Part shown: positions 4,253 through 26,697 of the stretch, piece after piece | Position numbering within the stretch: the stretch's first letter is position 1 | Layout of the letters: every line of letters begins with the position of its first letter | Source of the DNA: Steroidobacteraceae bacterium | GTDB lineage: Bacteria; Pseudomonadota; Gammaproteobacteria; Steroidobacterales; Steroidobacteraceae | Assembly (NCBI GenBank): GCA_035571175.1 | Contig: DATMKO010000061.1 | Location: 1 to 30,235, forward strand | DNA: 30,235 nucleotides | Direction: 5' to 3' | The notes under the pieces: model-generated | Database searches by the model: none | What the model saw: the letters and a program-made list of their open reading frames with translations, nothing else | What the model was told of the DNA's origin: nothing | Made by a program: the position numbers and the translations under genes

Positions 4253-4255
4253 GCA

Positions 4256-4933
4256 TCATTCCCAGTCTTTGATCATGAACTCAGGTTGATGCTTGGGAAC
4301 ACGGTCGGTGATCTTCAGCTCCAGATACTTTGCACCGACGCCCTTGTCGAAACTGATGGTGGCGCCGCGCTTGTAGGCGCGCTCCACCGGACCCTTGCCG
4401 GTAAAAAACGCCACCAGTTCATGTTTGCCGACCTTCAAATTGCCCAAATAAATCTGCTGCACTCCGCCCTTGAGCAGTGCATCGGCTTCGCGCGCGGTGT
4501 ACAGATAATTCTTCACTTCCTTGTTGTCGATCTTGACGGTCACCGAATCCAGCGCGAAGAACGTGCCTACGTCCATCGATATGTAGAGCGCGACCTGGGT
4601 ATTGGCGGGAAACAGCAGTTCTTCTTGCAGAACGAACAGGTCCTTGTTGAGGTCAATGACGTCCTTTTTCAGACTCTGCACTTCCTGATCCAGGGTCTTG
4701 AGTTCGGCCGGCGGCGCATCCGGGGCTGCGGCAGCTGCCGGCGGCGCGGAATCGCTCCCCGGCGTTGGGGCGGCAGCGGCCGGATTTTGCTCGCTCGGCG
4801 CAGCTGCCGGCGGCGTTGCCGGAGCCGCAGCTGCGGGGGCCGCCGCGTTCGCCGCCGACGCGCCTGCGGCCATCCACGCCGCCGACAGCACGCCGAAAAC
4901 CATGATCGACACAACCCGGACTTTAAGATTCAT
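4256..4933 (-). CDS. Secreted protein: signal peptide, Ala/Pro-rich linker, coiled coil and beta-rich C-terminal domain (225 aa)
   Basis: Signal peptide, AAAPAAAAPATPP low-complexity linker, coiled coil LDQEVQSLKKDVIDLNKDLFVLQEELL, then a beta-rich domain. No helix-turn-helix is visible. From memory, homologues are often labelled 'AraC family regulator', which the sequence does not support. Confidence 0.8.
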   Translation of the reverse strand: MNLKVRVVSIMVFGVLSAAWMAAGASAANAAAPAAAAPATPPAAAPSEQNPAAAAPTPGSDSAPPAAAAAPDAPPAELKTLDQEVQSLKKDVIDLNKDLFVLQEELLFPANTQVALYISMDVGTFFALDSVTVKIDNKEVKNYLYTAREADALLKGGVQQIYLGNLKVGKHELVAFFTGKGPVERAYKRGATISFDKGVGAKYLELKITDRVPKHQPEFMIKDWE

Positions 4934-4947
4934 AACTGGCCTATCGT

Positions 4948-5451
4948 TTACTCGCGCAGCAATTCGCGAATTTGATCAAGAAAAATGCGCTCATCACCGC
5001 GCTTGAAGCCGACAATCGAATAGCGCACCACGCCGGCGCGATCCACCAGGATCGTCATGGGCATTTTTTGCAGCAAGTAGTCTTTGCCGATTTCTGATCC
5101 GGTATCGAACAGGATCGGATATGACACTCCCATCGCGACCGCGAACTCCTGCGCACGGCGCAGATCCTCGTCGACCGACACGCCGATCACCACGAGTCCG
5201 GCGCGCTGGTAGGTGGTGTTGATGCGGTCGAGCGCCGACATCTCCTGCCGCGAATCGCCCGCCCAGCGCGCCCAAAAATTAACCAGAACCACCTGGCCGC
5301 GATACTCGGACAAGCGCAAATTTCTGCCATCCAGTCCACGCAGCACAAAATCCGGCGCCTCCTTGCCCACCATGGTCGGCGCGGCCGCAAGCGAGGAGCC
5401 GGCCATTGCGGCGCCGAGGATCAGGCAGCCGAGGAAGAATGCTCTACGCAT
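4948..5451 (-). CDS. TlpA/ResA-like thioredoxin-fold protein lacking both active-site cysteines (AGDS in place of CxxC)
   Basis: APDFVLRGLDG..LRLSEYRGQVVLVNFWARWAGDSRQEM..MPMTILVDRAGVVRY is a typical TlpA scaffold. Codons at 5251-5262 read GCG GGC GAT TCG (A-G-D-S). The only Cys lies in the signal peptide. Confidence 0.88.
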   Translation of the reverse strand: MRRAFFLGCLILGAAMAGSSLAAAPTMVGKEAPDFVLRGLDGRNLRLSEYRGQVVLVNFWARWAGDSRQEMSALDRINTTYQRAGLVVIGVSVDEDLRRAQEFAVAMGVSYPILFDTGSEIGKDYLLQKMPMTILVDRAGVVRYSIVGFKRGDERIFLDQIRELLRE

Positions 5452-5499
5452 GCGGTGCTAAATTCAAGCTGACGCCGAAGCGCCGCGATTCATCAATCA

Positions 5500-5585
5500 C
5501 GCTGGTAACCCCGCTGTCCTAGGAACACCCCGTAGACCGGAAGCTTTGCGCCCTCGCCTTTCAGCGAGTTTGCCCTGATCAGACC
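5500..5585 (-). ncRNA. c-di-GMP-I (GEMM) riboswitch
   Basis: The minus strand reads GGUCUGAUCAGGGCAAACUCGCU-GAAA-GGCGAGGGCGCAAAGCUUCCGGUCUACGGGGUGUUCCUAGGACAGCGGGGUUACCAGCG. It aligns by eye to the V. cholerae Vc2 aptamer: P2 stem CUCGCU/GGCGAG with GAAA tetraloop, GCGCAAAG junction and AGCGGGGUUACC 3' end. Ligand-contact equivalents G20 (5574), A47 (5547) and C92 (5505) and the C44-G83 pair are conserved. P1 can form G14-C93, U13-A94 and C12-G95. It lies about 50 nt upstream of ATG 5451. Confidence 0.95.
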
Positions 5586-5591
5586 TTATGC

Positions 5592-5621
5592 AAAATCGCA
5601 CAATGCGAGCCGCAGTGTCAA
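5592..5621 (-). promoter_or_regulatory. Candidate sigma70-type promoter for the riboswitch-led transcript
   Basis: Perfect TTGACA at 5621-5616. A 17-18 nt spacer gives only a weak -10 (CGATTT/GATTTT). The implied start at about 5586 would sit just 5' of the aptamer. Confidence 0.4.
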
Positions 5622-5785
5622 CGCAGCGGCAGCGGCTTCACTGGATTTCTGTATGACTTGGCGCACATTCATGGAATTTCATTGCGATGCTGCTCTCGTG
5701 ACATGCCACGCACCGCTCGAGGCGCACAATGCAAGCGGCTTGCTACCCCGCATCACTGCTCGATGTGTTGTCTCTGGATTGAGAC

Positions 5786-5810
5786 AGACCTGCGCGGAAA
5801 GCGCAGGTCT
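5786..5810. repeat. Perfect inverted repeat, 10-bp stem
   Basis: AGACCTGCGC-GGAAA-GCGCAGGTCT, read directly from the sequence. Confidence 0.8.
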
Positions 5811-5844
5811 AAAAGCCAAGGGTCCGACGTCAGCCGGACCCTTG
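5811..5844 (-). terminator. Probable intrinsic terminator downstream of the DUF1501-like gene
   Basis: The minus strand reads CAAGGGTCCG-(8 nt)-CGGACCCTTG followed by GCTTTT, starting about 18 nt after the TAG at 5862. The U-tract is short. Confidence 0.6.
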
Positions 5845-5861
5845 TGTTGCAGATCACATTC

Positions 5862-7481
5862 CTAGGCAACTAATCCATTGACGAGACCGGCCAGCGGTTG
5901 CCATGCAACCAGCGGTTCGAGCGCGGTGCCGCTGCCCAGGGTGTTGTTCAAGTTCGGCGCGGGCCACAGTGTCGGCCACGCGGATATCGCGTTGGCACTG
6001 TGCAGCGCCATGTAGTTGAGCACCACCATCTGCACCAGGTTGGGTACGTTGTTGCCGGCGGGGCTGCCGGTGGTGTTCTGCGAACCGTCGGGATTGAAGT
6101 TGCCGATCTGCAAACTCATTTCCGGATTGGATTGCGCGGACACCGCCCTTCCCGCGGGATTGAAGACCAGGAAATAGGTCGCCGCGACGCTTTGGTTGTC
6201 GGCCGTCCAGACGCCCTTGCCGCGCCCGCCAACGGAGTTGTCGATCATGCCGTTGCTGGCGAGCGAGCCGTCGCTGAATACATAGATCATCACCGGTTTG
6301 CCCACGCGGTTGGCATATTCCAGAACCGCGCCGATGCAATTGCCCAGGTTCAAATCCTTGGCCTCACCGTCCATGCGGTTGCCGCTGTGATAGTCGAAGC
6401 CGCCCATTTCGATGGTGCCGGCGGCGGCATTGCCGTCGATCACGAGTTTCATGACTGCCGCGGTCGCTTGATAGGACGAGTTGGCCTGGTATTCGGCCGT
6501 TTGGAAGATGCCGCTGGCGCCCACGATGTTCGGATCCACGTCGGGATTCACGGCGGACGGACTGTTGTACTTGTCGACGATGTAGGCCGACTTCGTATAG
6601 CCGCAGGCCTCGATTCCGGCCGACCCGATTGCTGCGGTATTCAATGCCGCATTATTCGGATACGCCGTCACCACGCCGTACTTGGCATCGCTGATGCGCT
6701 TCATGGACTCCAGCACATTGGTGACGTCGGAAGAATTGGGCAGCAGCGTGCTCAACTGTCCGGTGCTGACCAAACCCTTGCTGTCCTGCGAACTGGAGAT
6801 TTTGGTCGGCGTCGCCGACGGGATGACCATGGTGGGCGGTGACATGGAGTTGCCACCCGACATGGAACTATCCGTGCCGATGAGATTCAGCAGGCCGCCG
6901 CGCGCGCCCGCTTGATAGATGCCGTACATCGGGTTGTGCGGATTGGTATTGGTATCGTTTTGCGACAGCGCAGGAATGATCGTGCCGGTCGTGCCCGCCA
7001 TGGCCGCGGCGCTGGCCCGCAGCTTCATGCCGCGCAAATGCGCGCTGTCCGAGTGATAGCGCAAGCCGAAGCTCGCGTCGACGAAACTACCCGAGGCGCT
7101 GGCATTCGGCACCATGGTTCCGGGCAGTCCCAGTTTGCTGTAGCCTGCGACCGAGAGGAAATCCAGCTGCCCGGCAGGACCGCCGACCAGCACATTGGAT
7201 CCGGCGATATTGCCGCCGCCGGCGAGGTCGAAGCAGATGAACGGGATCTTGCCGGCGCCGGTGGTGATGTTGCAGGCGGTTACCGCGGCCTGGATATCCG
7301 CAGCGAGCGTCGCGCGAGCAGATCGCGGGTAGGCCAGCATACCGGCCAGCGTCGGTGCGACCACCGTCGCCGCGCCGGTGATGAAGCCCTGCGCGAGGAA
7401 CTCGCGGCGCGTGCGTGGCCGTGGGTGATCCTGGTGACGGAACGGCCCGTTGGTACCCGCCGTAACTGATTTCTTGCTCAT
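5862..7481 (-). CDS. Tat-exported DUF1501-like protein of unknown function (539 aa)
   Basis: Twin-arginine motif RTRREFLAQG with a signal ending SARA. The motifs PFICFDLAGG, IEMGGFDYH and VMIYVFSDG resemble the DUF1501 motifs (xFLxGG, GGWDTH, vvxsEFGR). A purine-rich SD (GGAAGAGG) precedes ATG 7481. Confidence 0.65.
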   Translation of the reverse strand: MSKKSVTAGTNGPFRHQDHPRPRTRREFLAQGFITGAATVVAPTLAGMLAYPRSARATLAADIQAAVTACNITTGAGKIPFICFDLAGGGNIAGSNVLVGGPAGQLDFLSVAGYSKLGLPGTMVPNASASGSFVDASFGLRYHSDSAHLRGMKLRASAAAMAGTTGTIIPALSQNDTNTNPHNPMYGIYQAGARGGLLNLIGTDSSMSGGNSMSPPTMVIPSATPTKISSSQDSKGLVSTGQLSTLLPNSSDVTNVLESMKRISDAKYGVVTAYPNNAALNTAAIGSAGIEACGYTKSAYIVDKYNSPSAVNPDVDPNIVGASGIFQTAEYQANSSYQATAAVMKLVIDGNAAAGTIEMGGFDYHSGNRMDGEAKDLNLGNCIGAVLEYANRVGKPVMIYVFSDGSLASNGMIDNSVGGRGKGVWTADNQSVAATYFLVFNPAGRAVSAQSNPEMSLQIGNFNPDGSQNTTGSPAGNNVPNLVQMVVLNYMALHSANAISAWPTLWPAPNLNNTLGSGTALEPLVAWQPLAGLVNGLVA

Positions 7482-7506
7482 AAGTTTAAGACCTCTTCCG
7501 TCTTGC

Positions 7507-10032
7507 TTAGTAGATCAACATGTCGGCGCTGCCGAAGGCCGTCGCGCAGGCCGCGGCGGTGACCGCCTGTACCCGTGCGGTGGTCGTGCAAGCGGTGCTG
7601 CTGCAAAGATTGGTTATCAACTTGTCGAGCTCGCCGCTGGCTCCTGTCATGGTCGAGGCCGCCGGCTGGCTTTGCAGACCGCTGCCGAGCACCTTGGCCG
7701 CGAGCGGGCCGGTGACCGAGTCGATACCGGCCTGCGTCCCGAACAATCCAGCACTCAAGGTCACGCCCGGGAACATGGCCGAAACCAATGCCGGGTTGTT
7801 GACCATTTCATTGCAGTACTGGATGGCGATCTGCGCGATGCCGACCTGTTGCGCCGAGGAGAAGCTCTCCAGCGTCGGAATCGCCGGCAGCTGCTGCTGT
7901 ACGGCCTGATATGTCGCGACCACGTTCGGATCCGAAGTCGCCACGCCCGTGAGCGCCGACAGCGTCGAATTGACCGATGCAAAGGTCTTGATGCCGATAT
8001 CGGCGACCACCGGACCCGGCGAGGGCGCCGGCGCGGTCGGCGTCGGCTCGACCACCACATCGGTCTGGCTGCCCAGCACGTCGAAGGTAAGGAAGAACTG
8101 GTCGCTGGCAGGCCCGCTCTGCAGCGCAATCACGGTGCCGATGGGCGACAGCACCTCGCCCGTTGGCGTGTAGTTGGCCGCAGTCACGGTGGTATTCAGC
8201 GGTATGTAGGCCTGGCCCACTGACGGGATCGTGCCGTTCAAGCCGATGCGTATGCCCTGCACCGGAATGCTGGGCAGGTTGGCCGAGGTAACCGTCGGAT
8301 CCAGCGAGATGAAAGTCGGCTGGTAGAACAGGTAGCTGTAGCTGTCGTACTGGCTGACCGTGAACATCACATAGGACTGCGACACGTTGGTGACGCTCGC
8401 CACATTGAACAGCATGTAGTAGCGCTCGCCAACGCCCGCGTTGAAGTTCTGCATCACCTGCGCAGCCGACATGGCGCGGCTATGGATGGCGACGAACTTG
8501 ATGAGTCCCGTCCAGGACCGATCGCCGGACACGCCATTGCCGAGCACCAGCGCGAAGGTGCTGTCCCAGTTGGAGATGGTGCCGCCCTTCTGTGCATCAG
8601 CCGGACCGACGTTCACGCCGTTGACGTAGATCATGCGGCCGTTGACCGGATCGTACGTCAGCACCACGTGCTGCAAAGACGCCTGCAAAGCCATGGCAGC
8701 ATTCGGAGTCTGCAGCTGCGGCATGCCGGTCAGCGCCGTTGTCGAGGCGCGCATCAGGAAGTCATAGTCCTGATTGGTTTGACCCAGCGTGAAGTTACGC
8801 GTGGTGTCACCGCCCTCATAACTGACCATGTAGGAATTGTCGACCGCCACCACCGCGGGCGCCACCCAGGCCTCGACCGAGAACTCGCCCGTCGCCTGGA
8901 TGAGATTGTAAAGCTTCGAGCTCGAGGCGGTCGTGGCCTGCGCCTTGCCGCCGCTGCCGACATTGATACCCCAACCGCCGGCCAGGGTGACGTTGCCCGA
9001 GATCGTGAGATCCGCAGACGGGTCGATGCCGCTGGTGTCGAACGTGGTGTTGTTGACGATCGACTGGAACTCGTACTTGGCGATCGTGTCGGCATCGTAG
9101 CGGCTCGCGCCGCTGGCGATGGTGCCCTGCGTGAGCGTTATCGCCTTGCTGACGACCAGATTAGGATCGATGTTGGACGGGGTCAGCATTTGCGCGAATG
9201 CCTGAATCTGCGCCAGCATCTGCGCTGCATCGGAAGCGCAGTTGTCCCAACAGTTGTGGTTGTCGGTAAGCAGCCGCTGATACAGGCGTGAATTCACGCC
9301 GCACGACAAGGGAGTCGTGGTGCCGTTGCTGTTGCCGGCGACGAACGGACTGCAGCCGGTGAAGTCGATTTTCGGAATCGCTGCCGGATAAGCAATCAAC
9401 AGATTGGGATCGGCGTGATACGGCTGCTGCTCCACGGAAGGATCGGCCGTCGTCGAATGGCAGCGCACACAGTACTTGCTGGTCAGCGTGTACACCGTGT
9501 TCTGGTAGTCGGTGTAGGACGCCGGGAAGTTCAGGCTCTGTCCGACGGTTTGCACCGGCGGCGCCACCAATTGCACCGTGGTTGAGGAGGTGGCTCCCGT
9601 GGCATTGGCCCAGTTGGTGATCCAAGTGGTCAAAATCTGGCCGCAGGCGTTAGGGTCGGCGAGCCAGCAGTTGTGACCGCCGCTCACCTTGATAACCATG
9701 GTTGACTGCGAGGGTTGCGCCAGGTTGACGACGGTGTTGGCCTGCACGTAGGCGAGATTCACATCGTCGCTGCGCGCAAAATTCGGCATCTGCGCCGGGG
9801 TGGTGGCGTTGTGGCACTGTCCGCAGCGGTTTTGCACGCGGATGTTGTTCCACAGATTGATTTCGAACGCCTGGACGTCCGCCGTCGCCGGCGCAGGCCC
9901 CGTGTAGGTGCTCGCCGTTGCCGTCTGCGAGGGCGCAACGTTGGCCACGGTTGGAGCGCCGGCGCCGCCGCAAGCGCTTAAGGCGAATGACGCTGCGAGA
10001 GCGATCAAGCCGGTAATGCGTGTAGCGTTCAT
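7507..10032 (-). CDS. Lipoprotein with two c-type heme domains and a LamG/concanavalin-A-like domain (about 841 aa)
   Basis: Lipobox LSA-C. CxxCH motifs CGQCH (9811-9825) and CVRCH (9457-9471), each followed downstream by HNCW...C. LamG_3 signatures GEFSVEAWV, LQHVVLTYD..MIYVNG and WTGLIKFVAIHSRAMS. The start was moved from TTG 10038 to ATG 10032, which follows a GGGGA SD. Confidence 0.85.
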   Translation of the reverse strand: MNATRITGLIALAASFALSACGGAGAPTVANVAPSQTATASTYTGPAPATADVQAFEINLWNNIRVQNRCGQCHNATTPAQMPNFARSDDVNLAYVQANTVVNLAQPSQSTMVIKVSGGHNCWLADPNACGQILTTWITNWANATGATSSTTVQLVAPPVQTVGQSLNFPASYTDYQNTVYTLTSKYCVRCHSTTADPSVEQQPYHADPNLLIAYPAAIPKIDFTGCSPFVAGNSNGTTTPLSCGVNSRLYQRLLTDNHNCWDNCASDAAQMLAQIQAFAQMLTPSNIDPNLVVSKAITLTQGTIASGASRYDADTIAKYEFQSIVNNTTFDTSGIDPSADLTISGNVTLAGGWGINVGSGGKAQATTASSSKLYNLIQATGEFSVEAWVAPAVVAVDNSYMVSYEGGDTTRNFTLGQTNQDYDFLMRASTTALTGMPQLQTPNAAMALQASLQHVVLTYDPVNGRMIYVNGVNVGPADAQKGGTISNWDSTFALVLGNGVSGDRSWTGLIKFVAIHSRAMSAAQVMQNFNAGVGERYYMLFNVASVTNVSQSYVMFTVSQYDSYSYLFYQPTFISLDPTVTSANLPSIPVQGIRIGLNGTIPSVGQAYIPLNTTVTAANYTPTGEVLSPIGTVIALQSGPASDQFFLTFDVLGSQTDVVVEPTPTAPAPSPGPVVADIGIKTFASVNSTLSALTGVATSDPNVVATYQAVQQQLPAIPTLESFSSAQQVGIAQIAIQYCNEMVNNPALVSAMFPGVTLSAGLFGTQAGIDSVTGPLAAKVLGSGLQSQPAASTMTGASGELDKLITNLCSSTACTTTARVQAVTAAACATAFGSADMLIY

Positions 10033-10034
10033 GC

Positions 10035-11249
10035 TCAATTCCCCATGCAGTAAGCGGCGCCTTCAGCGAAGGGTTGCCGCAGCGAATAGTTGTGCGCTTG
10101 GAACGAAGTGATCATCGAATTGATCTGAGTGAAGTCGGCGGCGGAATTCGGCGCGCGCAGACACACGGTCTTGAACACCCGGGTGACCTGGCAGCTGGTG
10201 AATGCCGCGCTGCTCTCCAGTTCCTGGCCCATGGACTTGGCACCGTTGCCGCTGCCCGGAAGGGCCGCGCTCCATCCCAGCACATAGTTCGGTCCGGTGC
10301 GCCAGTGGTTGTTCCAGCTGTCGTCCGGGGTGTTGAACCCTTGCGGGAAATTGGTGTTGTTAATATGGTACTTCGGCTGTGTTTGGCCGGCGGTGTACTG
10401 GATCTGGCCGACGGTGTCGGTCATGGTCGGGTCGGTGCCGGTGAAGTTGTAGAAGGCAAAGGCCTGCGCCATCGGATCCATGCCGCTGTGACAGCCGATG
10501 CAGTTGTTCAGGAACAGAGTGCTGACGCCGCCCGGGCTGCGCGTCACGTCCTGGCGAATTCGATCCGGTGGCCGCGTGATGTCCATCACGGTCGGCAGGT
10601 CGTTACACAGATGGTTCAACATCGTGAAGCGGAACATCGCCCGGTTTGTGCCGTTGATGAAGAACGCGCTGGCCGCGCCGCGCGTGGTCATGATGCCGGC
10701 GGTCGCCGCAGCAGGGATGCCGGTCAGCGCCGATTGAGTGCTTGAAACCAGGTGGACGCTGAGGTCGACATTGTTGGCGTCCAGTGCGTCGTACATGGCG
10801 TTGTTCGCCGGCGAATACGTTCCCTCGCCGGACTTGCCGTCGCCGACGTAAACCAAATCGGCGCTGAGCAAGGTATTAAAAGGAACGTTGTCGCGCACCA
10901 TGCCGACCACGGTCGCGGTGTAATCGTTGAGCGAGACGAACACCGATTGATCGCGGTTGGTCCAGGGCGCCGCCATGTTGCGGATGGTGTTGTTGTAGAA
11001 CGCCGGGTCGTTGGTGGCGATGAGTGCGGCGGCTACCGGGCTGGCCGCGCTCGTCATCTGCGACAGCTGCGCCGCGGTGGGCGGCACACCGGCGATGCGG
11101 TTGTAGATTCGCGTCGCTTGGTCGGCGTTGGGTGCCTGCGCGAGCGCCTGCCCGCCAAGCAGTGCTACAGCGCCTGCACACGCGGCTGCGCGCACAGCGA
11201 GCGTTACAAGATGCGGCGTGGCTGCCGCGCGGCGTGCAATCTGCCTCAT
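10035..11249 (-). CDS. Exported monoheme c-type cytochrome, DUF1588/DUF1585 (PSD)-like (about 404 aa)
   Basis: Signal peptide ending GGQALA. CIGCHSGMDPMAQAF (CxxCH at 10488-10502) and AGIMTTRG..NRAMFRFTMLNHLC resemble DUF1588. The C-terminal FTSCQVTRVFKTVCLRAP..FQAHNYSLRQPF resembles DUF1585. The start was moved to ATG 11249, which follows a GGAGA SD. Confidence 0.72.
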   Translation of the reverse strand: MRQIARRAAATPHLVTLAVRAAACAGAVALLGGQALAQAPNADQATRIYNRIAGVPPTAAQLSQMTSAASPVAAALIATNDPAFYNNTIRNMAAPWTNRDQSVFVSLNDYTATVVGMVRDNVPFNTLLSADLVYVGDGKSGEGTYSPANNAMYDALDANNVDLSVHLVSSTQSALTGIPAAATAGIMTTRGAASAFFINGTNRAMFRFTMLNHLCNDLPTVMDITRPPDRIRQDVTRSPGGVSTLFLNNCIGCHSGMDPMAQAFAFYNFTGTDPTMTDTVGQIQYTAGQTQPKYHINNTNFPQGFNTPDDSWNNHWRTGPNYVLGWSAALPGSGNGAKSMGQELESSAAFTSCQVTRVFKTVCLRAPNSAADFTQINSMITSFQAHNYSLRQPFAEGAAYCMGN

Positions 11250-11606
11250 TGGTTTCTCCATCCCGTTGTTCATATGCACATCCACTCGCGTGAGTTGTCG
11301 GTTCGACTGGGTGCGAATATACGCAGCCCACAAGGCCCCCAGTAATGTCTCATCCAGACGACGTCGGCGTTTCGCGACAGTACGACCATTAAGAGTGCGC
11401 CTATATCCTGAGCCTCGATTGCCGCACGGTCTGGCACGGCGTGCACAGAGAAACGGATATGGACAAGTTCTTCTGTGAGTGCGTTAACAGTATGCGTATG
11501 CGCGTCGAACGAAGATGCGCATATGAGACCGATTAAGTTCAATGATGCCGTCTTCACGCGTGCCGGCCGATCGCTGAACCGAAACATTGTGCATAGGTAG
11601 CAACAA

Positions 11607-14330
11607 ATGAACACTTGCAGTCCGCGTGAACGACATCACGGTTTGCTGAAACTCGCAGCGCTCGCTCTGCCCCTGCTCGCGATGCTTGGCTGCGAAAGCG
11701 CCACGACCGGGCATGCGCCGGGTCTCGCGGGCGGACAAAACCTGACCCCCGGCATCACCAATTATCCGCTGGCCTACATCAAGCGCCCGGTGATCACCAA
11801 GGATTTCGACAACGTCCGCGACCTCATCACCTCGATGACGGGCGGCGATGTGTACATCCGCGATACCGCCAGCGCCGGCGGCGCCGAAACCAACATCACC
11901 GCATCGATCACCAAGGGCATGGGCGATGTCCGCGACCTCGATGTGTCGCCGGACGGCGCGAAAATGATTTTCTCGCTGCGCCTGCCGCTGAACCCGAAAC
12001 TCAAGAATACGGACCTGAAGCAGCCGAATTGGCACATCTACCAGTATGACGCCGCGGCCAAGACCGTTACCCAGCTGACCAACGATGACATCACCGCGGG
12101 CCACGATGTCGGCGGGCACTATCTGCCGGACGGCAGAATCGTATTCTCCTCGACACGGCAGCTCGCGACGCAATCCATCCTGCTCGATGAGGGACGTCCG
12201 CAGTACTCGGCCGAGACCGACAATCGCCAGCAGGAGATATTCCTGCTGCATGTGATGAACGGCGACGGCACCCAGATGCATCAGATCAGTTTCAACACGA
12301 ATCACGATTTCTTGCCGTCCGTCTCGGCCAATGGGCAGATCATCTTCTCGCGCTGGGAAGTCACCAACGGCGCCGATCAGGTCAGCTTGTATCGCGCCAA
12401 TCCGGACGGCACCGGGCTGCAGCTCTACTACGGCGCCAACAGCCATGCCAGCGGTGCCAACATCGCAGGCACCAACAACAACGTGATCCAGTTCGTCAAT
12501 GCTCGCGAGCTTGCCAGCGGCGCGCTGGTGTCGATTGTTCGGCCGTTTATGGGCACACAGCTCGGTGGCGACATCGTCACGATCAACGCGCCCGAATTCG
12601 TCGAAATCCATCAGCCGGCCACGCCGGGGGGCACCGCCGGCACCGCGCAGGCCAGCACCACGACCCTGGGGGTCACCACGGATGCGAATCTGCCGTCCAT
12701 GGGCGGTCGCTTTGCCTCGGTTTTCCCTCTCTATGACGGCACCAATCGCATGCTGGTGAGCTGGTCGCCCTGTCTGGTTCTCGACACCACCGTGACGCCC
12801 AATACCACCAATCTTTGCACCGCCGCGAATACCGCCGGCGCCAACGTGACCTTGGCGCCTCCGCAGTACACATTGTGGATTTACGATTTGGATCAAGGAA
12901 CCTTGGGCCCGGTGTTGAGCGCCGATGTGGGCACCATGGTCGTCGAACCGGTGATTTTGCAGGCGCGCAAGCCGGTACCGACCACCTTGGTCGATGCAGC
13001 TCCCGCGCCCGGCGCACAGCAGAACATGGCCACCGCGGGTGTCGGCTTGCTGGATATCAGCAGCGTCTACGATGTGGACGGTGTTGATACCGCGGTGCCG
13101 AGTATTCCAGGGCTGGCGGACCCAAGCCAGGCGCCCTTCTATACGCGACCGTACCGCTTCGTAAGAATTCAGAAGTCGGTGGAAATTCCCGACAAGACGG
13201 TGCGCAAGATCAACAACTCCGCGTTCGGACCCGCGGGAATGGGGATGCGCGAGATTCTCGGCTACGCGCCCATCCAGCCCGATGGATCGGTGCAGATCCA
13301 AGTGCCCGCCAACGTCCCCTTCACGATCGACATCGTCGATGTGAACACACGGCGCATCTTGTCGCAGCACACCAGCTGGCTGCAATTGCTGCCGGGAGAG
13401 ACCAAGACATGCAATGGCTGCCACACCACCGTCAATATGACCTCGCATGGCCGCTCGGGATTGACCAACCCGGTTAATCCGGGCGCGCCGACCACCGGTC
13501 AGCCGTTCCCGAATACCAGTCCGGCGCTGTTTGCCAACGCCGGCGAAACCATGGCACAAACCCTGGCACGGATCACCTGCGCGAACGGCAAGACTCCGAG
13601 CGGCGCCGCTACGCCCTGCTCGCAGCTCCTGACCTCGGATGTGATCTACGCCAATGTCTGGACCACGGGCATCACCCCGCCGGCCGGAGACACCGACGCC
13701 AGCTTCTCCTATCCCTATACCGGCGTCACGGGACTCTCGGAAACGCCACCCACCAATGCGAATTGTGTGCCGTGGACCGCGCAATGCCGAATCACGATCC
13801 ACTACGATACCGACCCCGTGAAGCAAACGTTCCTGCAAGCGGTGTGGAGCCTGCCGACTCGCTTGGCGGCTGACGGCGTTACCCCGGCGGTTTGCGTGAC
13901 CTGTCACAACCCGGTGAACGCGATGGCCATGGTACAAGTGCCTCAGGGCCAGCTAGACTTGACGGGCGGTGCATCGAGTGTGGACCCGACCGTGGTCACC
14001 TCATATGAGGAAGTGCTGTTCCCTCACAACGAACAGACGCTTAATATGGGCGTGCTGCAGGATTTGTTGGTGCCGGCGCCGGGACCTCCGGATCCTGTGA
14101 CCGGACTTCCGACCACGATAATGGTGCCCGTGTCGTTGGCGCCGCCGATGGCTGCCGGCAGCGCAGCGGGATCGACAACTTTCTTGAGGATGTTTGACGG
14201 TAGTTTTCATGACCCCGTACTCGATCACACCGGCTATTTGTCGCCCGCTGAACTGCGATTGATAACCGAATGGCTCGACATTGGTGCTCAATTCTACAAC
14301 GATCCGTTTGTCGCGCCCGTAGCGAACTGA
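11607..14330 (+). CDS. Hydrazine synthase alpha-subunit-like diheme lipoprotein: PD40/WD40 beta-propeller, HZS_alpha middle domain and C-terminal cytochrome c (907 aa)
   Basis: Lipobox MLG-C. Propeller repeats DLDVSPDGAKMIFS, YLPDGRIVFSSTR, DFLPSVSANGQIIFSRWE and LYRANPDGTG. HZS-alpha middle signature DGSVQIQVPANVPF..WLQLLPGETKTCNGCH (CxxCH at 13410-13424). Second heme motif CVTCH (13893-13907) and C-terminal ELRLITEWLDIGA. Confidence 0.85.
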   Translation: MNTCSPRERHHGLLKLAALALPLLAMLGCESATTGHAPGLAGGQNLTPGITNYPLAYIKRPVITKDFDNVRDLITSMTGGDVYIRDTASAGGAETNITASITKGMGDVRDLDVSPDGAKMIFSLRLPLNPKLKNTDLKQPNWHIYQYDAAAKTVTQLTNDDITAGHDVGGHYLPDGRIVFSSTRQLATQSILLDEGRPQYSAETDNRQQEIFLLHVMNGDGTQMHQISFNTNHDFLPSVSANGQIIFSRWEVTNGADQVSLYRANPDGTGLQLYYGANSHASGANIAGTNNNVIQFVNARELASGALVSIVRPFMGTQLGGDIVTINAPEFVEIHQPATPGGTAGTAQASTTTLGVTTDANLPSMGGRFASVFPLYDGTNRMLVSWSPCLVLDTTVTPNTTNLCTAANTAGANVTLAPPQYTLWIYDLDQGTLGPVLSADVGTMVVEPVILQARKPVPTTLVDAAPAPGAQQNMATAGVGLLDISSVYDVDGVDTAVPSIPGLADPSQAPFYTRPYRFVRIQKSVEIPDKTVRKINNSAFGPAGMGMREILGYAPIQPDGSVQIQVPANVPFTIDIVDVNTRRILSQHTSWLQLLPGETKTCNGCHTTVNMTSHGRSGLTNPVNPGAPTTGQPFPNTSPALFANAGETMAQTLARITCANGKTPSGAATPCSQLLTSDVIYANVWTTGITPPAGDTDASFSYPYTGVTGLSETPPTNANCVPWTAQCRITIHYDTDPVKQTFLQAVWSLPTRLAADGVTPAVCVTCHNPVNAMAMVQVPQGQLDLTGGASSVDPTVVTSYEEVLFPHNEQTLNMGVLQDLLVPAPGPPDPVTGLPTTIMVPVSLAPPMAAGSAAGSTTFLRMFDGSFHDPVLDHTGYLSPAELRLITEWLDIGAQFYNDPFVAPVAN

Positions 14331-14334
14331 ACTG

Positions 14335-15069
14335 ATGCGTCGTCTGCTCGCGCTGGTGCTGCTGCTGCAGGCGTTACATGTAGGACTAGCGGAAGCCGCC
14401 GACAAGTACCTGGTACTCGTGGTCACCGACCCTTACCTGGAAATGCACTCCGGGCCGGGGCGCGGCTTTCCGATCGTATACGTGATTGGACGGGATGAAC
14501 TCGTCACGGTGCTGTACAGCCGCACCGACTGGTTCAAAGTTCGCGCACCGCGTGGACAAGAAGGCTGGGTGCGCCGCTCCGACCTGTCGCGCACGCTGTT
14601 GGCCAGCGGCGAACCGGCGCCGATACCGCCATATCCCGATTTCGCCAGTCATCGCTGGGAGGTCGGCGCCGGTTACGGCGTTTACAACCGCGAGAATCTG
14701 GTCACCACTTACGCCGACTTCGGCCTTACTTCCAGCCTCGACGTCGAGTTTGTCGTGCAGCAGGCATTCGGTACTCTGGACAACCGCTACATCGCGACCA
14801 TTGGATTGCGGCACACCTTTGTACCCGAATGGAAGTGGTTCTCACCGACGGCTGGAATAGGCACCGGCTATCAGTTTATCCAAGATGTAGTTCCACCCGC
14901 GCCGCTGCAGAACAATAACGAGATGGCCTACGTCTCGCTGGGCGCCCGCGGTTTCATCACCCGTCGCTTCATGTGGCGCGCCGATTGGCGCCACTATGTC
15001 GTCTTCAACAATCAGAATGTGTATGAGGATCTAGAAGAATGGAAATTAGACTTAGCAGTATTCTTCTAG
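14335..15069 (+). CDS. Bacterial SH3 domain plus outer-membrane beta-barrel protein (244 aa)
   Basis: Signal peptide and SH3-like segment (LEMHSGPGRGFPIV..WFKVR..EGWV). Alternating aromatic/hydrophobic strands follow, with a terminal Phe beta-signal (LAVFF). Confidence 0.8.
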   Translation: MRRLLALVLLLQALHVGLAEAADKYLVLVVTDPYLEMHSGPGRGFPIVYVIGRDELVTVLYSRTDWFKVRAPRGQEGWVRRSDLSRTLLASGEPAPIPPYPDFASHRWEVGAGYGVYNRENLVTTYADFGLTSSLDVEFVVQQAFGTLDNRYIATIGLRHTFVPEWKWFSPTAGIGTGYQFIQDVVPPAPLQNNNEMAYVSLGARGFITRRFMWRADWRHYVVFNNQNVYEDLEEWKLDLAVFF

Positions 15070-15710
15070 TCGCGGCGCTGCTGTCCGGCTGCAGCTGGTT
15101 TCACCGCGGCAACAAGGGTCCGCCCGAAGTGGTTGCGGAGGAGCCGCAGGGCGAGCCGTCGATCGTCGAGCCGCAGGTGACCCGCCGCGTGGTAAAGACG
15201 CCCAAGATCAAAGCCAAGGACTTCGAGGTGGGCGCGTATTTTGGTGCGCTCAGCATTCAGGATTTCGGCACCAATCCGGTTTACGGGGTGCGCGGCGCGT
15301 ACCACGTATCGGAGGACATTTTCCTCGAAGGCTACGTGGGCCGCTCCAAAGCCGGAACCACCAGTCTCGAGGACGTGTTTCCGGATATCACGGTGGTCAG
15401 CAACTCTGGGAGGTATTTCACGTACTACGACCTGGACGTAGGCTACAACGTACTGCCGGGCGAGATCTTTCTGGGACGCGGACGCGCGTTCAATTCGGCC
15501 CTGTACGTGACGGTCGGCATGGGCGATGTGAAATTTGCCGATAAAGACCAGTTCGCGTTGAACTTTGGGGTAGGCGAGCGGCTGCTGGTAACCGATTGGA
15601 TGGCGATTCATCTGGATGTACGAGACCACATCTTCGAAACCGATCTGACCGGCCGCACCAAGAATGTCGACAACATCGAAGCCACACTGGGCTTAACCTT
15701 TTTCTTCTGA
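15039..15710 (+). CDS. Lipoprotein-signal outer-membrane beta-barrel protein, OmpA-like 8-stranded class, TIGR04565-like (223 aa)
   Basis: Lipobox LSG-C. Amphipathic strands FEVGAYFG, YGVRGAYH, LYVTVGMG and FALNFGVGER. The C-terminus is ATLGLTFFF. Confidence 0.8.
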   Translation: MEIRLSSILLVAALLSGCSWFHRGNKGPPEVVAEEPQGEPSIVEPQVTRRVVKTPKIKAKDFEVGAYFGALSIQDFGTNPVYGVRGAYHVSEDIFLEGYVGRSKAGTTSLEDVFPDITVVSNSGRYFTYYDLDVGYNVLPGEIFLGRGRAFNSALYVTVGMGDVKFADKDQFALNFGVGERLLVTDWMAIHLDVRDHIFETDLTGRTKNVDNIEATLGLTFFF

Positions 15711-15726
15711 TCAGGAGTAATGATCA

Positions 15727-16236
15727 ATGCATATTGCCAAATCAAGTCTATTGAAACGCTGCGCGATGGCGGCGCTCGTGCTCGCCTCGTCCGCGTTCGC
15801 GGCCGGCGGCGATGCCGCGGGTCCCGCACCTTCCTTCACGTTGACCACCCTCGCCGGCCAGCCCGGCGGCCTCGGCGAGTACAAGGGTCAGGTCGTGATG
15901 GTTAACTTCTGGGCGACCTGGTGCGGACCCTGCCAGCAGGAAATGCCGCTGTTGGACCAAATGTACAAGAAGTACAAACCGGCGGGATTTACCCTGATCG
16001 GCGTCAACGTCGACAAGGAGTCGCCCGCGGTCAAGGAATTGTTGGCGCGCAAACCCGTGAGCTTCCCGGTGCTGCTGGATCCCGCCAACCAGGTGAGCAA
16101 GGCCTACCACGTCGATGAGATGCCGAGCTCGGTCATCATCGATCGCAAGGGTCAGATTCGCTACGTGCACCGTGGCTACAAGCCCGGCGACGAAAACGAC
16201 TATCAAGATCTCATTCGCAAGCTCATCCGGGAATAG
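15727..16236 (+). CDS. TlpA-family thiol:disulfide oxidoreductase (169 aa)
   Basis: Signal peptide, NFWATWCGPCQQEM active site, cis-Pro motif EMPSSVIID and an AGGAG SD upstream. Confidence 0.92.
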   Translation: MHIAKSSLLKRCAMAALVLASSAFAAGGDAAGPAPSFTLTTLAGQPGGLGEYKGQVVMVNFWATWCGPCQQEMPLLDQMYKKYKPAGFTLIGVNVDKESPAVKELLARKPVSFPVLLDPANQVSKAYHVDEMPSSVIIDRKGQIRYVHRGYKPGDENDYQDLIRKLIRE

Positions 16237-16239
16237 CCC

Positions 16240-16461
16240 ATGCGCTGCCAACCGCTCTTGGCGTTGAGCGCCTTGCTGCTGCTCTCCGCGTGCAACATCC
16301 AGCCCTGGGTGAAACCGTATGAGCGCGACCGCCTCGCGGATCCGATCATGGCCTGGGACCGCGACGCCATCTCCGGCGCCTACCTGGATCACATTCGTGA
16401 ATCCAGAGAGGGATCACGCGGCGCCACCGGCGGAGCGGGCGGCGGCTGCGGCTGCAACTGA
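16240..16461 (+). CDS. DUF4266 small lipoprotein (73 aa)
   Basis: Lipobox LSA-C, VKPYERDRLADPIM motif and C-terminal GGAGGGCGCN, all characteristic of DUF4266. Confidence 0.88.
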   Translation: MRCQPLLALSALLLLSACNIQPWVKPYERDRLADPIMAWDRDAISGAYLDHIRESREGSRGATGGAGGGCGCN

Positions 16462-16464
16462 CGT

Positions 16465-17640
16465 ATGGCGCGACGGCAACGCATCTTCGCTCGTGCAGCA
16501 GTCATCGCTGCGTTGCTGCTGGTCCGCAGCACGAGCGCGGATGTGCTGCCCGACGATCGCGCCGATCTTTTCTACAGCAAGTACAGCGGCGGCGGGATGG
16601 ATATCACCGGCGAATCCGCGACAGTGCGCAAGAAATTCACGGAGAACATCGCCGTTGAGGCCAATTATTTCATCGACAAGGTCAGCGGCGCATCCATCGA
16701 CGTGCTGAGTCAGGCGAGTGTCATCAAGGACACTCGCAAACAAAAGACCGGCACGATCGAATATCTCCACGACAAAACCACCTACACCGCCTCGTACATC
16801 AGCAGCACCGAGCGGGACTACGTCTCCAATACGGCGAGTTTTTCCTTGAGCCAGGACATGTTCGGCGATCTGACCACCGTGTCTCTCGGTTACGCCAAGA
16901 CCAACGACCGGGTTGGTGAAAACAACGGCACCGCCTGGGTTCCGATCATCGATTGGCTGGGATACGCGCAAACCAGCAGTTACACGGGGGGCATCTCGCA
17001 GATCATCACCAAGAATTTCATCGCAGGATTGAATCTGCAGGTCATCACGGACAGCGGCTACCTCGCCAACCCCTATCGCTCGGTCCGGTACCTGGACTCC
17101 AGCAATCCCAAAGGCTACTCGCTGGCCAGCCAGGTGTATCCCGACACGCATACCAGCACGGCAATTCAAGTGCAGGGCAAGTACTACCTGCCCTATCGGG
17201 CCGCTGTGACGGCCTCGTATCGGTACTACACCGACACCTGGGGAGTGGTCGGCAACACCGTGGAACTCGACTACACCCATCCGATCCGCAATCTTTGGAT
17301 ACTGGAGGGTCGGGCGCGGTACTACAAACAGGGGGCGGCGACTTTTTACAGCGATTTATTTCCGTTCGCGAACGCTCAGAATTTCGAGGCCCGCGACCAG
17401 AATCTCGCCGCTTTGGATAATTATACGCTCGGCGCCAAAGCCACTTACGCGTTCTTGCCCGATGGATGGAAGTTCTTCAAGCGCGCCACGGTCACGCTCG
17501 ACATCAGCCGCATTCGCTTCAACTACACCGACTTTCGCAACATCAAGTACTACGGTGTGCCGCAATATCCGCCGGGGACGGAACCCTTGTACTACTTCAA
17601 CGCCACGGTCAGCCAGATCTACATATCGATGTTTTTCTGA
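16465..17640 (+). CDS. DUF3570-family predicted outer-membrane beta-barrel (391 aa)
   Basis: Signal peptide, VDxxSGAS-type motif (IDKVSGASIDV), GYLANPYRSV, many Tyr/Thr-rich strands and terminal Phe (ISMFF). It sits directly after DUF4266, as expected for the family. Confidence 0.85.
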   Translation: MARRQRIFARAAVIAALLLVRSTSADVLPDDRADLFYSKYSGGGMDITGESATVRKKFTENIAVEANYFIDKVSGASIDVLSQASVIKDTRKQKTGTIEYLHDKTTYTASYISSTERDYVSNTASFSLSQDMFGDLTTVSLGYAKTNDRVGENNGTAWVPIIDWLGYAQTSSYTGGISQIITKNFIAGLNLQVITDSGYLANPYRSVRYLDSSNPKGYSLASQVYPDTHTSTAIQVQGKYYLPYRAAVTASYRYYTDTWGVVGNTVELDYTHPIRNLWILEGRARYYKQGAATFYSDLFPFANAQNFEARDQNLAALDNYTLGAKATYAFLPDGWKFFKRATVTLDISRIRFNYTDFRNIKYYGVPQYPPGTEPLYYFNATVSQIYISMFF

Positions 17641-18005
17641 CCCGACCTGACGAGCCCACGCCACCACACCAGCAGCATGGGCGCCAGCGCGCTGATGATG
17701 GCAATCGTATCCGCGACCCAGTCCCAAAAATCCCGATCTCTGTGCACCAACGGAAGCCCCTGCACCACCTCGATCAGGGCGCCGAACGCGGACAGCAAGG
17801 CGGCGATCAAGAACAGGTTGCGCTTCGGAAATGCCGCGACCGCAAGACCGGTCAAAGCATAGAAGGCCATGAAGTGCTCGGCCTTGTCCCACGGCGCCAA
17901 TTGCAACGCAAGCTGCGAGGGTATGACGGCGCTGTAAAACGTAAAGACGAGAGCGGCAAAGAATGCGATCTGTGCCAGCTTGAGCAATACCGATACTTTG
18001 AGCAC
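17619..18005 (-). CDS. VanZ-like integral membrane protein (about 128 aa)
   Basis: The C-terminal half of track ORF 17619..18380 has four hydrophobic segments with WDKAEHFMAF, GALIEVVQG and RDRDFWDWVAD. The N-terminal 125 aa of the track ORF are antisense to the HiPIP gene and its upstream region. GTG 18005 is the likely start, but this is uncertain. Confidence 0.75.
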   Translation of the reverse strand: MLKVSVLLKLAQIAFFAALVFTFYSAVIPSQLALQLAPWDKAEHFMAFYALTGLAVAAFPKRNLFLIAALLSAFGALIEVVQGLPLVHRDRDFWDWVADTIAIISALAPMLLVWWRGLVRSGQKNIDM

Positions 18006-18134
18006 GGGCGTTCCAAAAAGATGCAGGATAGCAAATCGCGACCGCCGCGGTTTCCCCGAGCGATTCCGGCGATTCCCGGGTGACTGCGCCGCGATTTTTC
18101 TGCATATTAGCGTTCCCAATCGAAGGAACCGCGC

Positions 18135-18476
18135 ATGAGCCGACCAATACCAGGCGCCGCCATCACACGCCGGGCGCTGGTGAAGAACATTGCCATTGCC
18201 GCCGGCGCCGCCGCGGTGCTGCCCCATCGAACATCGAACGCCGGCGAACCGCAGCGGCTCGACGTTAAGGATCCGGCGGCCAAGGCGCGCGGCTACGTCG
18301 AAGACGCACAGCAGCTGGACGTGAAGAAATATCCATCCTACGTGAAGGGTTCGACCTGCGAGAACTGTCTGCTGTTGCAAGGAGCCAGCGGCGCGAATTA
18401 CCGCCCCTGCAATTTGTTCCCCGGCAAGGTGGTCTCCGTCCGCGGCTGGTGCAGCGGCTGGGCCGCTGAAATATAG
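18135..18476 (+). CDS. High-potential iron-sulfur protein (HiPIP), Tat-exported (113 aa)
   Basis: Twin-arginine signal TRRALVK and DPAAKARGYVEDA motif. The four-Cys pattern CENC...CNLFPGKVV...GWCSGW is typical of HiPIP. AAGGA SD upstream. Confidence 0.92.
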   Translation: MSRPIPGAAITRRALVKNIAIAAGAAAVLPHRTSNAGEPQRLDVKDPAAKARGYVEDAQQLDVKKYPSYVKGSTCENCLLLQGASGANYRPCNLFPGKVVSVRGWCSGWAAEI

Positions 18477-19378
18477 GCGTCGCGCACTCGCACTCCCACC
18501 TCGGGAAAATCGACGAAGAATCCATCGATGCCACGCTGTAGAAATTCACGGATTTCCGCTTCCAGGTTGCCGTGCGCGGCCGGCGCGTCGCCGATTTTCA
18601 AGTCATCCGGGAGAAACTCGTTTTCGGCGCGAAAGGTCCAGACGTGCACCTGCAGATTCACGGCATGCGCCGCACGCACTGCCTCGAGCGTGGCCAGCGG
18701 CTTCGTGATGCCGATCCCATCGGCATAGGTTGCGATCTCTCCAAGATCGCCCAATTCCTGTTCGAGCAGCTGAATCAGCGGCAGCTTGGTCATGGCACGC
18801 AATTGCCGTAAATTATTCGGATCGAAGGACTGAATGAATACCGGCGCGCCATCCTTCGCGTAGTCATAGCGGCGCAGGGTGTTCAATACGGCCGATTCGA
18901 GCGGCAGCCCCATCCGTGCAAAATGTGCGGGGTGCTTGGTTTCCGGGTACACGCCGATCGGTCGATTGGCGTTGCGATGGTTTGCATTGATCACCAATTG
19001 CATGATTTCATCGAAGGTTGGCACGCTGAATCGGCCATCAAAAACGCGATTTTGCGGCCGCAATTCCGCCAGCCGTTCGCGGGCGCGCAGACTCTTGATT
19101 TCCGATAGTGTGAAATCTTCGCTGAACCATCCGTCCGTGGGTTCACCGTCGATGACTTGCGTGCGGCGGCGCATCGCGAACTCCGGATGCTGCGCGACAT
19201 CCGTCGTGCCGCCAATTTCATTCTCGTGCCGCGCGATCAGCACCCCGTCGCGCGTCATGACCAAGTCGGGTTCGATGTAATCCGCGCCCTCCTCGATCGC
19301 CAGTCGGTACGATTCCAGGGTGTGTTCCGGCCGTTCGCCGCTGGCGCCGCGATGCGCAATTACAATGATTTTGCTCAA
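18398..19378 (-). CDS. Glycerophosphodiester phosphodiesterase, GDPD/GlpQ-like (about 326 aa)
   Basis: IAHRGASGERPEHT, ADYIEPDLVMTRDG, ARHE, GVYPETKHP, VFIQSF, VHVWTFR and GIDGFFVDFP. The start was placed at TTG 19378 just before the catalytic motif (uncertain). No signal peptide is visible. Confidence 0.9.
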   Translation of the reverse strand: MSKIIVIAHRGASGERPEHTLESYRLAIEEGADYIEPDLVMTRDGVLIARHENEIGGTTDVAQHPEFAMRRRTQVIDGEPTDGWFSEDFTLSEIKSLRARERLAELRPQNRVFDGRFSVPTFDEIMQLVINANHRNANRPIGVYPETKHPAHFARMGLPLESAVLNTLRRYDYAKDGAPVFIQSFDPNNLRQLRAMTKLPLIQLLEQELGDLGEIATYADGIGITKPLATLEAVRAAHAVNLQVHVWTFRAENEFLPDDLKIGDAPAAHGNLEAEIREFLQRGIDGFFVDFPEVGVRVRDAYISAAQPLHQPRTETTLPGNKLQGR

Positions 19379-26659: not shown

Positions 26660-26697
26660 GACGTCGCTTGCCATCCGACTCAAAACCGGGATATCCG

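Follow-up and report, generated by a model that had tools for sequence, protein, structure and literature searches.

Three kinds of bacterial gene set resemble parts of the locus studied here, and each was described separately. ApbE/DUF3570/thioredoxin-like/DUF4266 flavinylation clusters ("DsbD systems") were described by Meheust et al. (2021, eLife; PMC8238504), and flavinylation of DUF3570 by ApbE was demonstrated experimentally in that study on a Chlorobium protein. Luciano et al. (2011, PLoS Genet; PMC3169522) reported a Glt/Agl core complex in Gammaproteobacteria, in which gltD, E, G, and C, aglR, Q, and S, and one extra gene form a single operon; it was left without a function and was not expected to drive gliding, and Marinobacter, Saccharophagus, and Teredinibacter are named there as carriers. 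Pairs of PSCyt/PSD genes with DUF1501 or DUF1552 genes were described in Planctomycetes and Verrucomicrobia (He et al. 2017; PMC5615132), and it has been noted, though not explained, that PSCyt genes stand beside such families and frequently come with Laminin_G_3 modules. We analyzed a contig of 30,235 bases (DATMKO010000061.1), the whole of which is referred to as the window, from a soil Steroidobacteraceae genome that is 76% complete. A cluster of genes for exported redox proteins in this window and its linked genes combine counterparts of all three kinds as one co-inherited system, carried by approximately one-eighth of the sampled Gammaproteobacteria. On balance we favor the reading that a single modular system of approximately 20 genes spans the envelope, with the cluster as its redox half, a Glt/Agl-type motor as its other half, and the electron relay proposed below. 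The first-pass annotation of this DNA had proposed an undescribed redox system. The envelope redox set is indeed conserved, and no paper joining the flavinylation cluster, the Glt core complex, and PSCyt/DUF1501-type modules was found in our literature search, which returned papers on DUF3570, none of them on Glt. However, the TlpA-DUF4266-DUF3570 part had already been described (PMC8238504), and the flavin and the motor had been overlooked.

The cluster contains two densely packed operons, with intra-operon gaps of −31 to +25 nt, that diverge from 11334-11606, and nine exported proteins are encoded around this single intergenic region. The minus-strand operon encodes cyt432, LamG843, and Tat539 (hereafter, the trio). 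The plus-strand operon encodes Hzs907, the small barrels SH3brl244 and OMP223, TlpA169, a DUF4266 lipoprotein, and DUF3570. A further minus-strand operon encodes a thioredoxin-fold protein, u225, TPR630, and TPR787. The gene calls of the first-pass annotation were confirmed, positions included. The intergenic region is 357 nt long if cyt432 starts at 11249; no sigma-70-like site and no Rfam family was found in it, and a promoter and terminator scan of 5400-18600 gave nothing above shuffled sequences.

We compared the window with a close set of 62 Steroidobacteraceae loci and a distant set of 40 loci from other gammaproteobacterial families, in which Hzs identity was 28-48%. One alternative to a joint system is that unrelated exported modules (a PSCyt/DUF1501-like pair, an HzsA-like gene, a DUF3570 cluster, and a TPR operon) lie side by side merely through vertical synteny. 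Within Steroidobacteraceae the whole 30-kb region is syntenic, including unrelated GDPD, ECF sigma factor, and kinase genes. Synteny among the close loci is not informative, as such unrelated genes are retained too, and hence distant genomes were used. In these, the genes for Hzs, the two barrels, TlpA, DUF4266, and DUF3570 were colinear in 36-40 of the 40 loci, and the trio was their divergent neighbor in 27-28. Genes for u225, TPR630, and TPR787 were present in approximately 32 of the 40 at a location other than that in the window, mostly directly behind DUF3570 on the same strand. The motor/TPR module stands behind DUF3570 or behind the trio; gene order and orientation vary by lineage, and the linkage stays. 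This linkage holds over approximately 40 gammaproteobacterial families at 30-55% identity, whereas the GDPD, ECF, kinase, and high-potential iron-sulfur protein (HiPIP) genes are lost outside the family. Linkage that survives rearrangement is a signature of functional coupling. The five CxxCH sites in three exported proteins, to which the first-pass annotation had drawn attention, were likewise conserved in homologues from distant genomes spanning approximately 40 families, far above chance: in 28 of 28 for cyt432, in 29 of 30 for both sites of LamG843, and in 40 of 41 for Hzs907.

To describe co-occurrence, 400 Gammaproteobacteria were each searched for four markers: Hzs (found in 52 genomes), u225 (76), Tat539 (48), and DUF3570 (91). 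Hzs-positive genomes carried u225 in 51 of 52 cases, DUF3570 in 50, and Tat539 in 43, and 46 of the 48 Tat539-positive genomes had u225. In some genomes the trio is not linked to the Hzs operon, which agrees with mere synteny of independent modules; among five genomes with the trio not adjacent to Hzs, it was located elsewhere in three. DUF3570 clusters also occur without Hzs. In contrast, Tat539 was found in only 5 of the 348 Hzs-negative genomes, and a u225 homologue was present in 4 of those 5. Given these counts and the linkage across families, synteny alone is highly improbable as an explanation and has largely been refuted already. The genes are inherited together as a single set that encodes exported redox proteins, which supports this part of the first-pass interpretation, and neither the co-occurrence survey nor the conservation of the CxxCH sites refuted it.

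Four Hzs-less genomes were examined, and the barrel/thiol set and motor genes were retained. In one of the same family (L142), the genes for the barrels, TlpA, and DUF3570 are divergent from a series of Trx-u225-TPR-TPR-...-TolQ-TolR-TolR-GltG, with no Hzs and no trio; the DUF4266 query used gave no match there. The three others have a series from the barrels to u225, to which a small extra lipoprotein may or may not be added. Judged by these gene contents, the two small barrels, TlpA, DUF4266, and DUF3570 together with the motor make up the constant core, and the HzsA-like protein and the trio are accessory. The cytochromes are placed among the accessory parts because haem-free variants of the system exist.

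TlpA169 (15727-16236, plus strand) is a predicted exported thiol-disulfide oxidoreductase of the Redoxin/AhpC-TSA fold with the motif WCGPC, and its CxxC is conserved among homologues. The DUF4266 lipoprotein (16240-16461, plus strand) has 73 residues, matches PF14086 with an E value of 4.1e-22, and ends in GGCGCN, which contains a CXC motif. Its lipobox and a GGGCGCN tail were found in 18 of 18 homologues. DUF3570 (16465-17640, plus strand) matches PF12094 (E 3.6e-43; 148.4 bits vs a cut-off of 25) and belongs to a divergent subfamily of it, scoring approximately 90-150 bits vs 300-450 bits in canonical members. That it is an outer-membrane barrel, as first annotated, was corroborated by its structural model (pLDDT 91.5), which has 16-18 strands and resembles the outer-membrane barrels FadL, PelB, PgaA, AlgE, and porins. 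The C-terminal residue was aromatic in 38 of 39 homologues. A tandem pair of D-x-x-[ST]-x-A-S motifs lies in a long loop between strands 3 and 4 (SGAS at residues 74-77 and SQAS at 82-85 in the window protein), and by the usual topology of such barrels this loop would face the outer side.

Judged by sequence, TlpA-DUF4266-DUF3570 is the ApbE flavinylation cluster of Meheust et al., and because of this a flavin is the predicted cofactor of the system. In both, a thioredoxin-fold protein, a DUF4266 with a CXC tail, and DUF3570 are adjacent in the same order, and ApbE is present in half of the clusters related to ours. The set in the window differs in that its DUF3570 is of the divergent subfamily, mostly with SSAS instead of SGAS, in that its thioredoxin is of the Redoxin/AhpC-TSA type whereas that of the paper is PF13899, and in having no DsbD. 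It is also flanked by two extra barrels with an HzsA-like cytochrome and by a Glt-type motor, neither of which is mentioned in the main text of the paper; in the searched part of its eLife supplement, HZS_alpha and MotA_ExbB were not found. By family membership, the SSAS-type DUF3570 subfamily is a candidate ApbE substrate. ApbE (PF02424, E 2.5e-83) is located inside 21 of the 40 distant clusters, at three different positions. There is no ApbE gene on the contig analyzed here. Another contig of the same genome encodes an ApbE orthologous to that of the clusters (47-55% identity), and the genome has a second, unrelated paralogue. The unlinked orthologue (G000 contig C215; L140:751-2409) is directly behind a rhomboid protease gene. 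In a complex prediction, mature DUF4266 was placed against lumen-facing residues of the DUF3570 barrel, with a score of 0.60 vs 0.00 for the best control and a verdict of "weak support"; the mark used for such predictions is attained by 58 of 80 solved complexes and by 2 of 110 mismatched pairs.

The other half of the system was identified through the TPR operon. Its first gene (4948-5451, minus strand) encodes a thioredoxin-fold protein, a paralogue of TlpA169 with no cysteine and hence no CxxC. It is followed by u225 (4256-4933, minus strand), an exported protein of no Pfam or NCBIfam family that serves as the marker gene travelling with the TPR/motor module. TPR630 (2360-4252, minus strand) is a predicted periplasmic TPR scaffold in a GltD/E-like position, and TPR787 (3-2363, minus strand), a second such scaffold, is cut by the contig end. 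The genes that follow were read from relatives, as the window contig stops short of the motor genes. In six distant genomes and one genome of the same family, TPR787 is followed by genes for a short TPR protein, a 95-aa protein with no Pfam or NCBIfam family, and a motor composed of a MotA/TolQ/ExbB-like protein, two ExbD/TolR-like proteins, and a GltG-type TonB-like protein. The TonB-like protein of these relatives has the AgmX/PglI C-terminal domain (NF033768; 74.7 bits vs a cut-off of 40) and matches the gliding_GltG model with an E value of 5e-16, below the equivalog cut-off. The predicted products give this module the composition of the Glt/Agl core complex. As in the operon of Luciano et al., three TPR genes, a TolQ-like gene, two TolR-like genes, and a TonB-like gene with the GltG-type C-terminal domain form one operon in Gammaproteobacteria. 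Unlike here, linked barrels, TlpA, DUF4266, DUF3570, ApbE, and cytochromes are unreported in that paper, and the word "cytochrome" occurs 0 times in its text.

A cyclic di-GMP (c-di-GMP)-I riboswitch aptamer (5501-5584, minus strand; 71.2 bits vs a gathering score of 35) precedes the Trx-u225-TPR operon. The predicted c-di-GMP control is lineage-specific, because no riboswitch was found when six distant loci were scanned with Rfam. The members of Steroidobacteraceae carry the cysteine-less thioredoxin copy at the head of the TPR operon and an intact second TlpA in the Hzs operon. The cluster of one distant genome has a sole thioredoxin (L095:3054-3581, minus strand), which occupies the head position of the TPR operon and has kept WCGPC.

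In the system that we favor, electrons would enter from the inner membrane via a DsbD/CcdA-type protein and be passed to TlpA. The next carrier would be the DUF4266 lipoprotein, which would sit within the DUF3570 barrel and take up the electrons at its CXC tail; from there they would reach flavin mononucleotide (FMN) bound covalently on the long DUF3570 loop. The HzsA-like and LamG dihaem lipoproteins and Tat539 would be exchangeable terminal modules that draw on this relay to act on a substrate at the cell surface or in the periplasm. By analogy with Myxococcus GltABH/GltC (PMC11761067), the TolQR/GltG/TPR part, driven by protons, would build the platform in the outer membrane, gate it, or move it. 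Several points weigh against this proposal. We infer every electron-transfer step, and the motor is assigned its role purely by analogy. No DsbD gene is present in the cluster, and DsbD_TM gave a single match in the 76%-complete genome, just under the cut-off. Of 39 DUF3570 homologues, only 11 carry the exact [S/T]GA[S/T] motif, SSAS and T-x-AS being the usual forms, and the DUF4266-DUF3570 complex prediction does not place the CXC tail. The TPR proteins gave generic TPR matches only, with the GltE model at an E value of 2e-13, far below its cut-off. The co-occurrence counts among the 400 genomes are descriptive and not a statistical test, and they overstate the evidence, as related genomes do not count as independent.

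A bolder version, which we regard as possible and advance tentatively, is a trans-outer-membrane redox device of a kind not recognized before. The CXC-tailed lipoprotein would plug the flavinylated barrel, electrons would move from thiol to covalent FMN and on to a surface haem lipoprotein, and a proton-driven Glt/Agl-type motor would build, gate, or move the platform as a whole. On this view the core complex had this function ancestrally, and the myxobacterial gliding and spore-coat machines evolved from it. The question raised in 2011 about the ancestral core of the gliding motor receives a testable answer here, namely that this core is the partner of an outer-membrane flavin/thiol/haem module.

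The main rival to the relay is a machine for surface display or transport, in which the motor and three barrels would export, expose, or move the Hzs and LamG lipoproteins as cargo, TlpA and DUF4266 would serve biogenesis by holding cysteines of apocytochromes or of the cargo in the reduced state instead of relaying electrons, and the haem chemistry would be independent. TlpA/ResA/CcmG-type proteins have the classical role of reducing apocytochrome cysteines, which suits such a division of labor. The lipobox cysteines of the Hzs family (Cys29) and of the LamG843 family (Cys23) are invariant, and the c-di-GMP riboswitch lies ahead of the TPR operon. The architecture also parallels the Myxococcus GltABH-GltK-CglB-GltC platform, in which CglB is the cargo of GltABHK (PMC11761067). 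Both have three barrels, two of them paralogous neighbors, a small lipoprotein, a propeller lipoprotein, as the cargo would be, and a TPR protein as the link to a TolQR-type motor. This likeness is of architecture only: the system studied here has predicted flavin, thiol, and haem cofactors and no adhesin (VWA) domain. However, TlpA, DUF4266, and DUF3570 are retained in variants without any cytochrome or the Hzs/LamG cargo, a functional flavin cofactor is indicated by ApbE within half of the clusters, and the invariant CXC tail suggests redox cycling. Weighing both sides, we regard a display or transport machine as a serious minority possibility, and we retain the relay with the motor as the preferred reading.

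Hzs907 (11607-14330, plus strand), the first gene product of the plus-strand operon, is a predicted lipoprotein (lipobox MLGC) with a PD40 beta-propeller, an HZS_alpha middle domain (E 1.3e-15), and two CxxCH. The Hzs family profile matched HzsA (5C2V_A) with an E value of 1.3e-20 in four colinear segments covering the propeller, the haem-I domain, and the C-terminus. In HzsA of PDB 5C2V, the propeller, the haem-I middle domain, and the C-terminal helix are colinear with those of Hzs907, and both proteins have two CxxCH. Unlike HzsA, Hzs907 is a lipoprotein, and its family is far wider than anammox bacteria. On the HzsA equivalog model it scored 35.8 bits vs a cut-off of 800, and HzsB/HzsC-like genes were found neither in the cluster of the window nor in any of the 40 distant clusters. 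Hzs907 is an HzsA homologue and not a hydrazine synthase. The family contains at least 1293 clusters (50% identity) at an E value of 1e-30 or lower, and two of these, picked at random, had the same gene order on unrelated metagenome contigs. Outside anammox bacteria, HzsA-like genes fall into a large family whose context differs, and therefore they should not be taken as markers of anammox.

The two small barrels are encoded directly behind Hzs907. SH3brl244 (14335-15069, plus strand) is predicted to be Sec-exported; in it an SH3_3 domain is joined to a small barrel of the outer membrane, and its C-terminal residue is F. OMP223 (15039-15710, plus strand), its paralogue in the same BLAST family, is a small outer-membrane barrel that matches TIGR04565 OMP_myx_plus (148.5 bits vs a cut-off of 60) and scored 28.5 with Pfam OMP_b-brl, just below the cut-off of 28.7; its C-terminal F was found in 37 of 37 sequences. 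In trio-less clusters, a lipoprotein of approximately 170 residues (f12) is encoded between Hzs and the barrels (L126:13202-13717, plus strand; L127, L129, L130, L132, L133, L143, and L144). It has a C-x4-CH-like motif, ends in ...CGF, and has no Pfam or NCBIfam family. The Hzs of this f12-containing, trio-less subgroup has a third CxxCH.

The first-pass annotation had compared the locus with the porin, cytochrome, and HiPIP sets of iron oxidizers. Such a trans-envelope conduit for the oxidation or reduction of a metal (iron) would account for outer-membrane barrels, c-type cytochromes, and a HiPIP all within 13 kb and for a lipoprotein predicted inside a barrel. The HiPIP (18135-18476, plus strand) has a Tat signal and matches PF01355 with an E value of 4.6e-22. 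It was present in 47 of the 62 close loci but in 0 of the 40 distant loci, and its proposed membership of the system was dropped. The system has only five haems distributed over three proteins and no multihaem wire, there is no CxxCH in the three barrels, and the invariant core is entirely haem-free. Mtr-type Pfam families matched the cluster proteins only at E values of 0.05 or higher, with no MtrA/Cyc2-type family above threshold. The analogy with iron oxidizers found no specific support, and we consider a metal conduit improbable. The HiPIP gene overlaps an antisense open reading frame (ORF) of 253 codons (17619-18380, minus strand) with no family. The GDPD, ECF sigma factor, and kinase genes were rejected as system parts together with HiPIP, as they are missing from essentially all 40 distant loci.

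Within the preferred relay, LamG843 and Tat539 of the trio would supply further terminal modules. Cyt432 (10035-11333, minus strand), encoded by the first gene of the trio, is a monohaem protein with a Sec signal and CIGCH at ORF residue 278; the likely start codon is the ATG at 11249. It had been annotated as DUF1588/1585-like. The window protein itself gave only a marginal match to PSCyt3 (E 0.057), whereas among 26 homologues PSD2 was matched by 20 (best E 1.3e-6) and PSCyt3 by 9, all marginal or below the gathering scores. Cyt432 may be a distant relative of PSD2/PSCyt3 (DUF1585/1588), which the family as a whole supports better than the window protein does. LamG843 (7507-10038, minus strand), whose start overlaps the stop of cyt432 by 4 nt, is a predicted dihaem lipoprotein with the lipobox ALSAC, a central Laminin_G_3 domain (E 4e-20), two CxxCH, and a family-less C-terminal domain. 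Laminin_G_3 was found in 25 of 25 homologues, and the family profile matched only sialidase lectin domains among PDB sequences.

Tat539 (5862-7481, minus strand) is predicted to be Tat-exported through the twin-arginine motif TRREFL. It has more than 7900 homologues, all unnamed. The family conserves an RRDF Tat motif and an N-terminal P-L-x-H-x-D-H-x-R-P stretch, and a GG-x-D-Y-H motif is invariant in it. The protein has no Pfam or NCBIfam family, and Pfam matches were obtained for 0 of 24 homologues, so that the earlier name "DUF1501-like" holds at the level of a distant fold resemblance and not of a Pfam match. With the Tat539 model (pLDDT 74), Foldseek returned DUF1501, DUF1552, and DUF1800-fused models at E values of 2e-6 to 1e-2 and a TM of only 0.3-0.4; against PDB, the matches were weak and all of the alkaline-phosphatase superfamily. 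Because of these fold matches and the invariant GG-x-D-Y-H motif, the label "distant DUF1501-like metalloenzyme" is reasonable but unproven. The family profiles of Tat539 and cyt432 gave nothing significant against PDB sequences. An Atlas name for Tat539, "GspF family", is an automatic label with no support.

Cyt432 and Tat539 do resemble the uncharacterized PSCyt/PSD and DUF1501/DUF1552 pairs (PMC5615132), as had been claimed. In both, an exported haem protein with PSD-type domains, here putative, is followed by a Tat-exported protein of the alkaline-phosphatase fold, here predicted, and LamG-type carbohydrate-binding domains are common in such proteins. The pair here differs in its marginal sequence similarity (PSD2 only at about 1e-6 at best, and no DUF1501 match), in being part of a unit of three genes, one of which encodes a dihaem LamG lipoprotein of its own, in being tied to the Hzs/Glt-like system, and in showing no expansion into many paralogues. 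Separately, one complete genome (G044:C1:1998638-2005796) has the trio with a truncated Hzs, comprising the propeller part only, and no u225 or DUF3570 match; this locus may represent either decay of the system or a variant that stands alone.

Contigs nearly identical to the cluster were found in soil metatranscriptomes (n = 4 runs), with 0-9 differences per 240-800 nt. The summed word depth over the trio was approximately 0.3 to 31, and three of the four runs had bins of 10-31 there; it was 0-12 over the plus-strand operon and 0-3 over the TPR genes. This suggests that the trio is transcribed separately from, and more strongly than, the adjacent TPR operon. As evidence that the cluster is transcribed in soil, these data are suggestive only, since DNA may be present in RNA libraries and part of this stretch was used to select the runs. 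In the same four runs, the contig depth over the trio (window 5851-11050) was several-fold above that over the TPR operon (1-5200).

A lead to JDVT-CTERM proteins (Haft 2023) was ruled out, as no such tail occurs here. The right contig end encodes an S9 prolyl-oligopeptidase with PD40 repeats (26617-28803, plus strand) and an S10-like serine carboxypeptidase (28796-30232, minus strand), both unrelated to the cluster.

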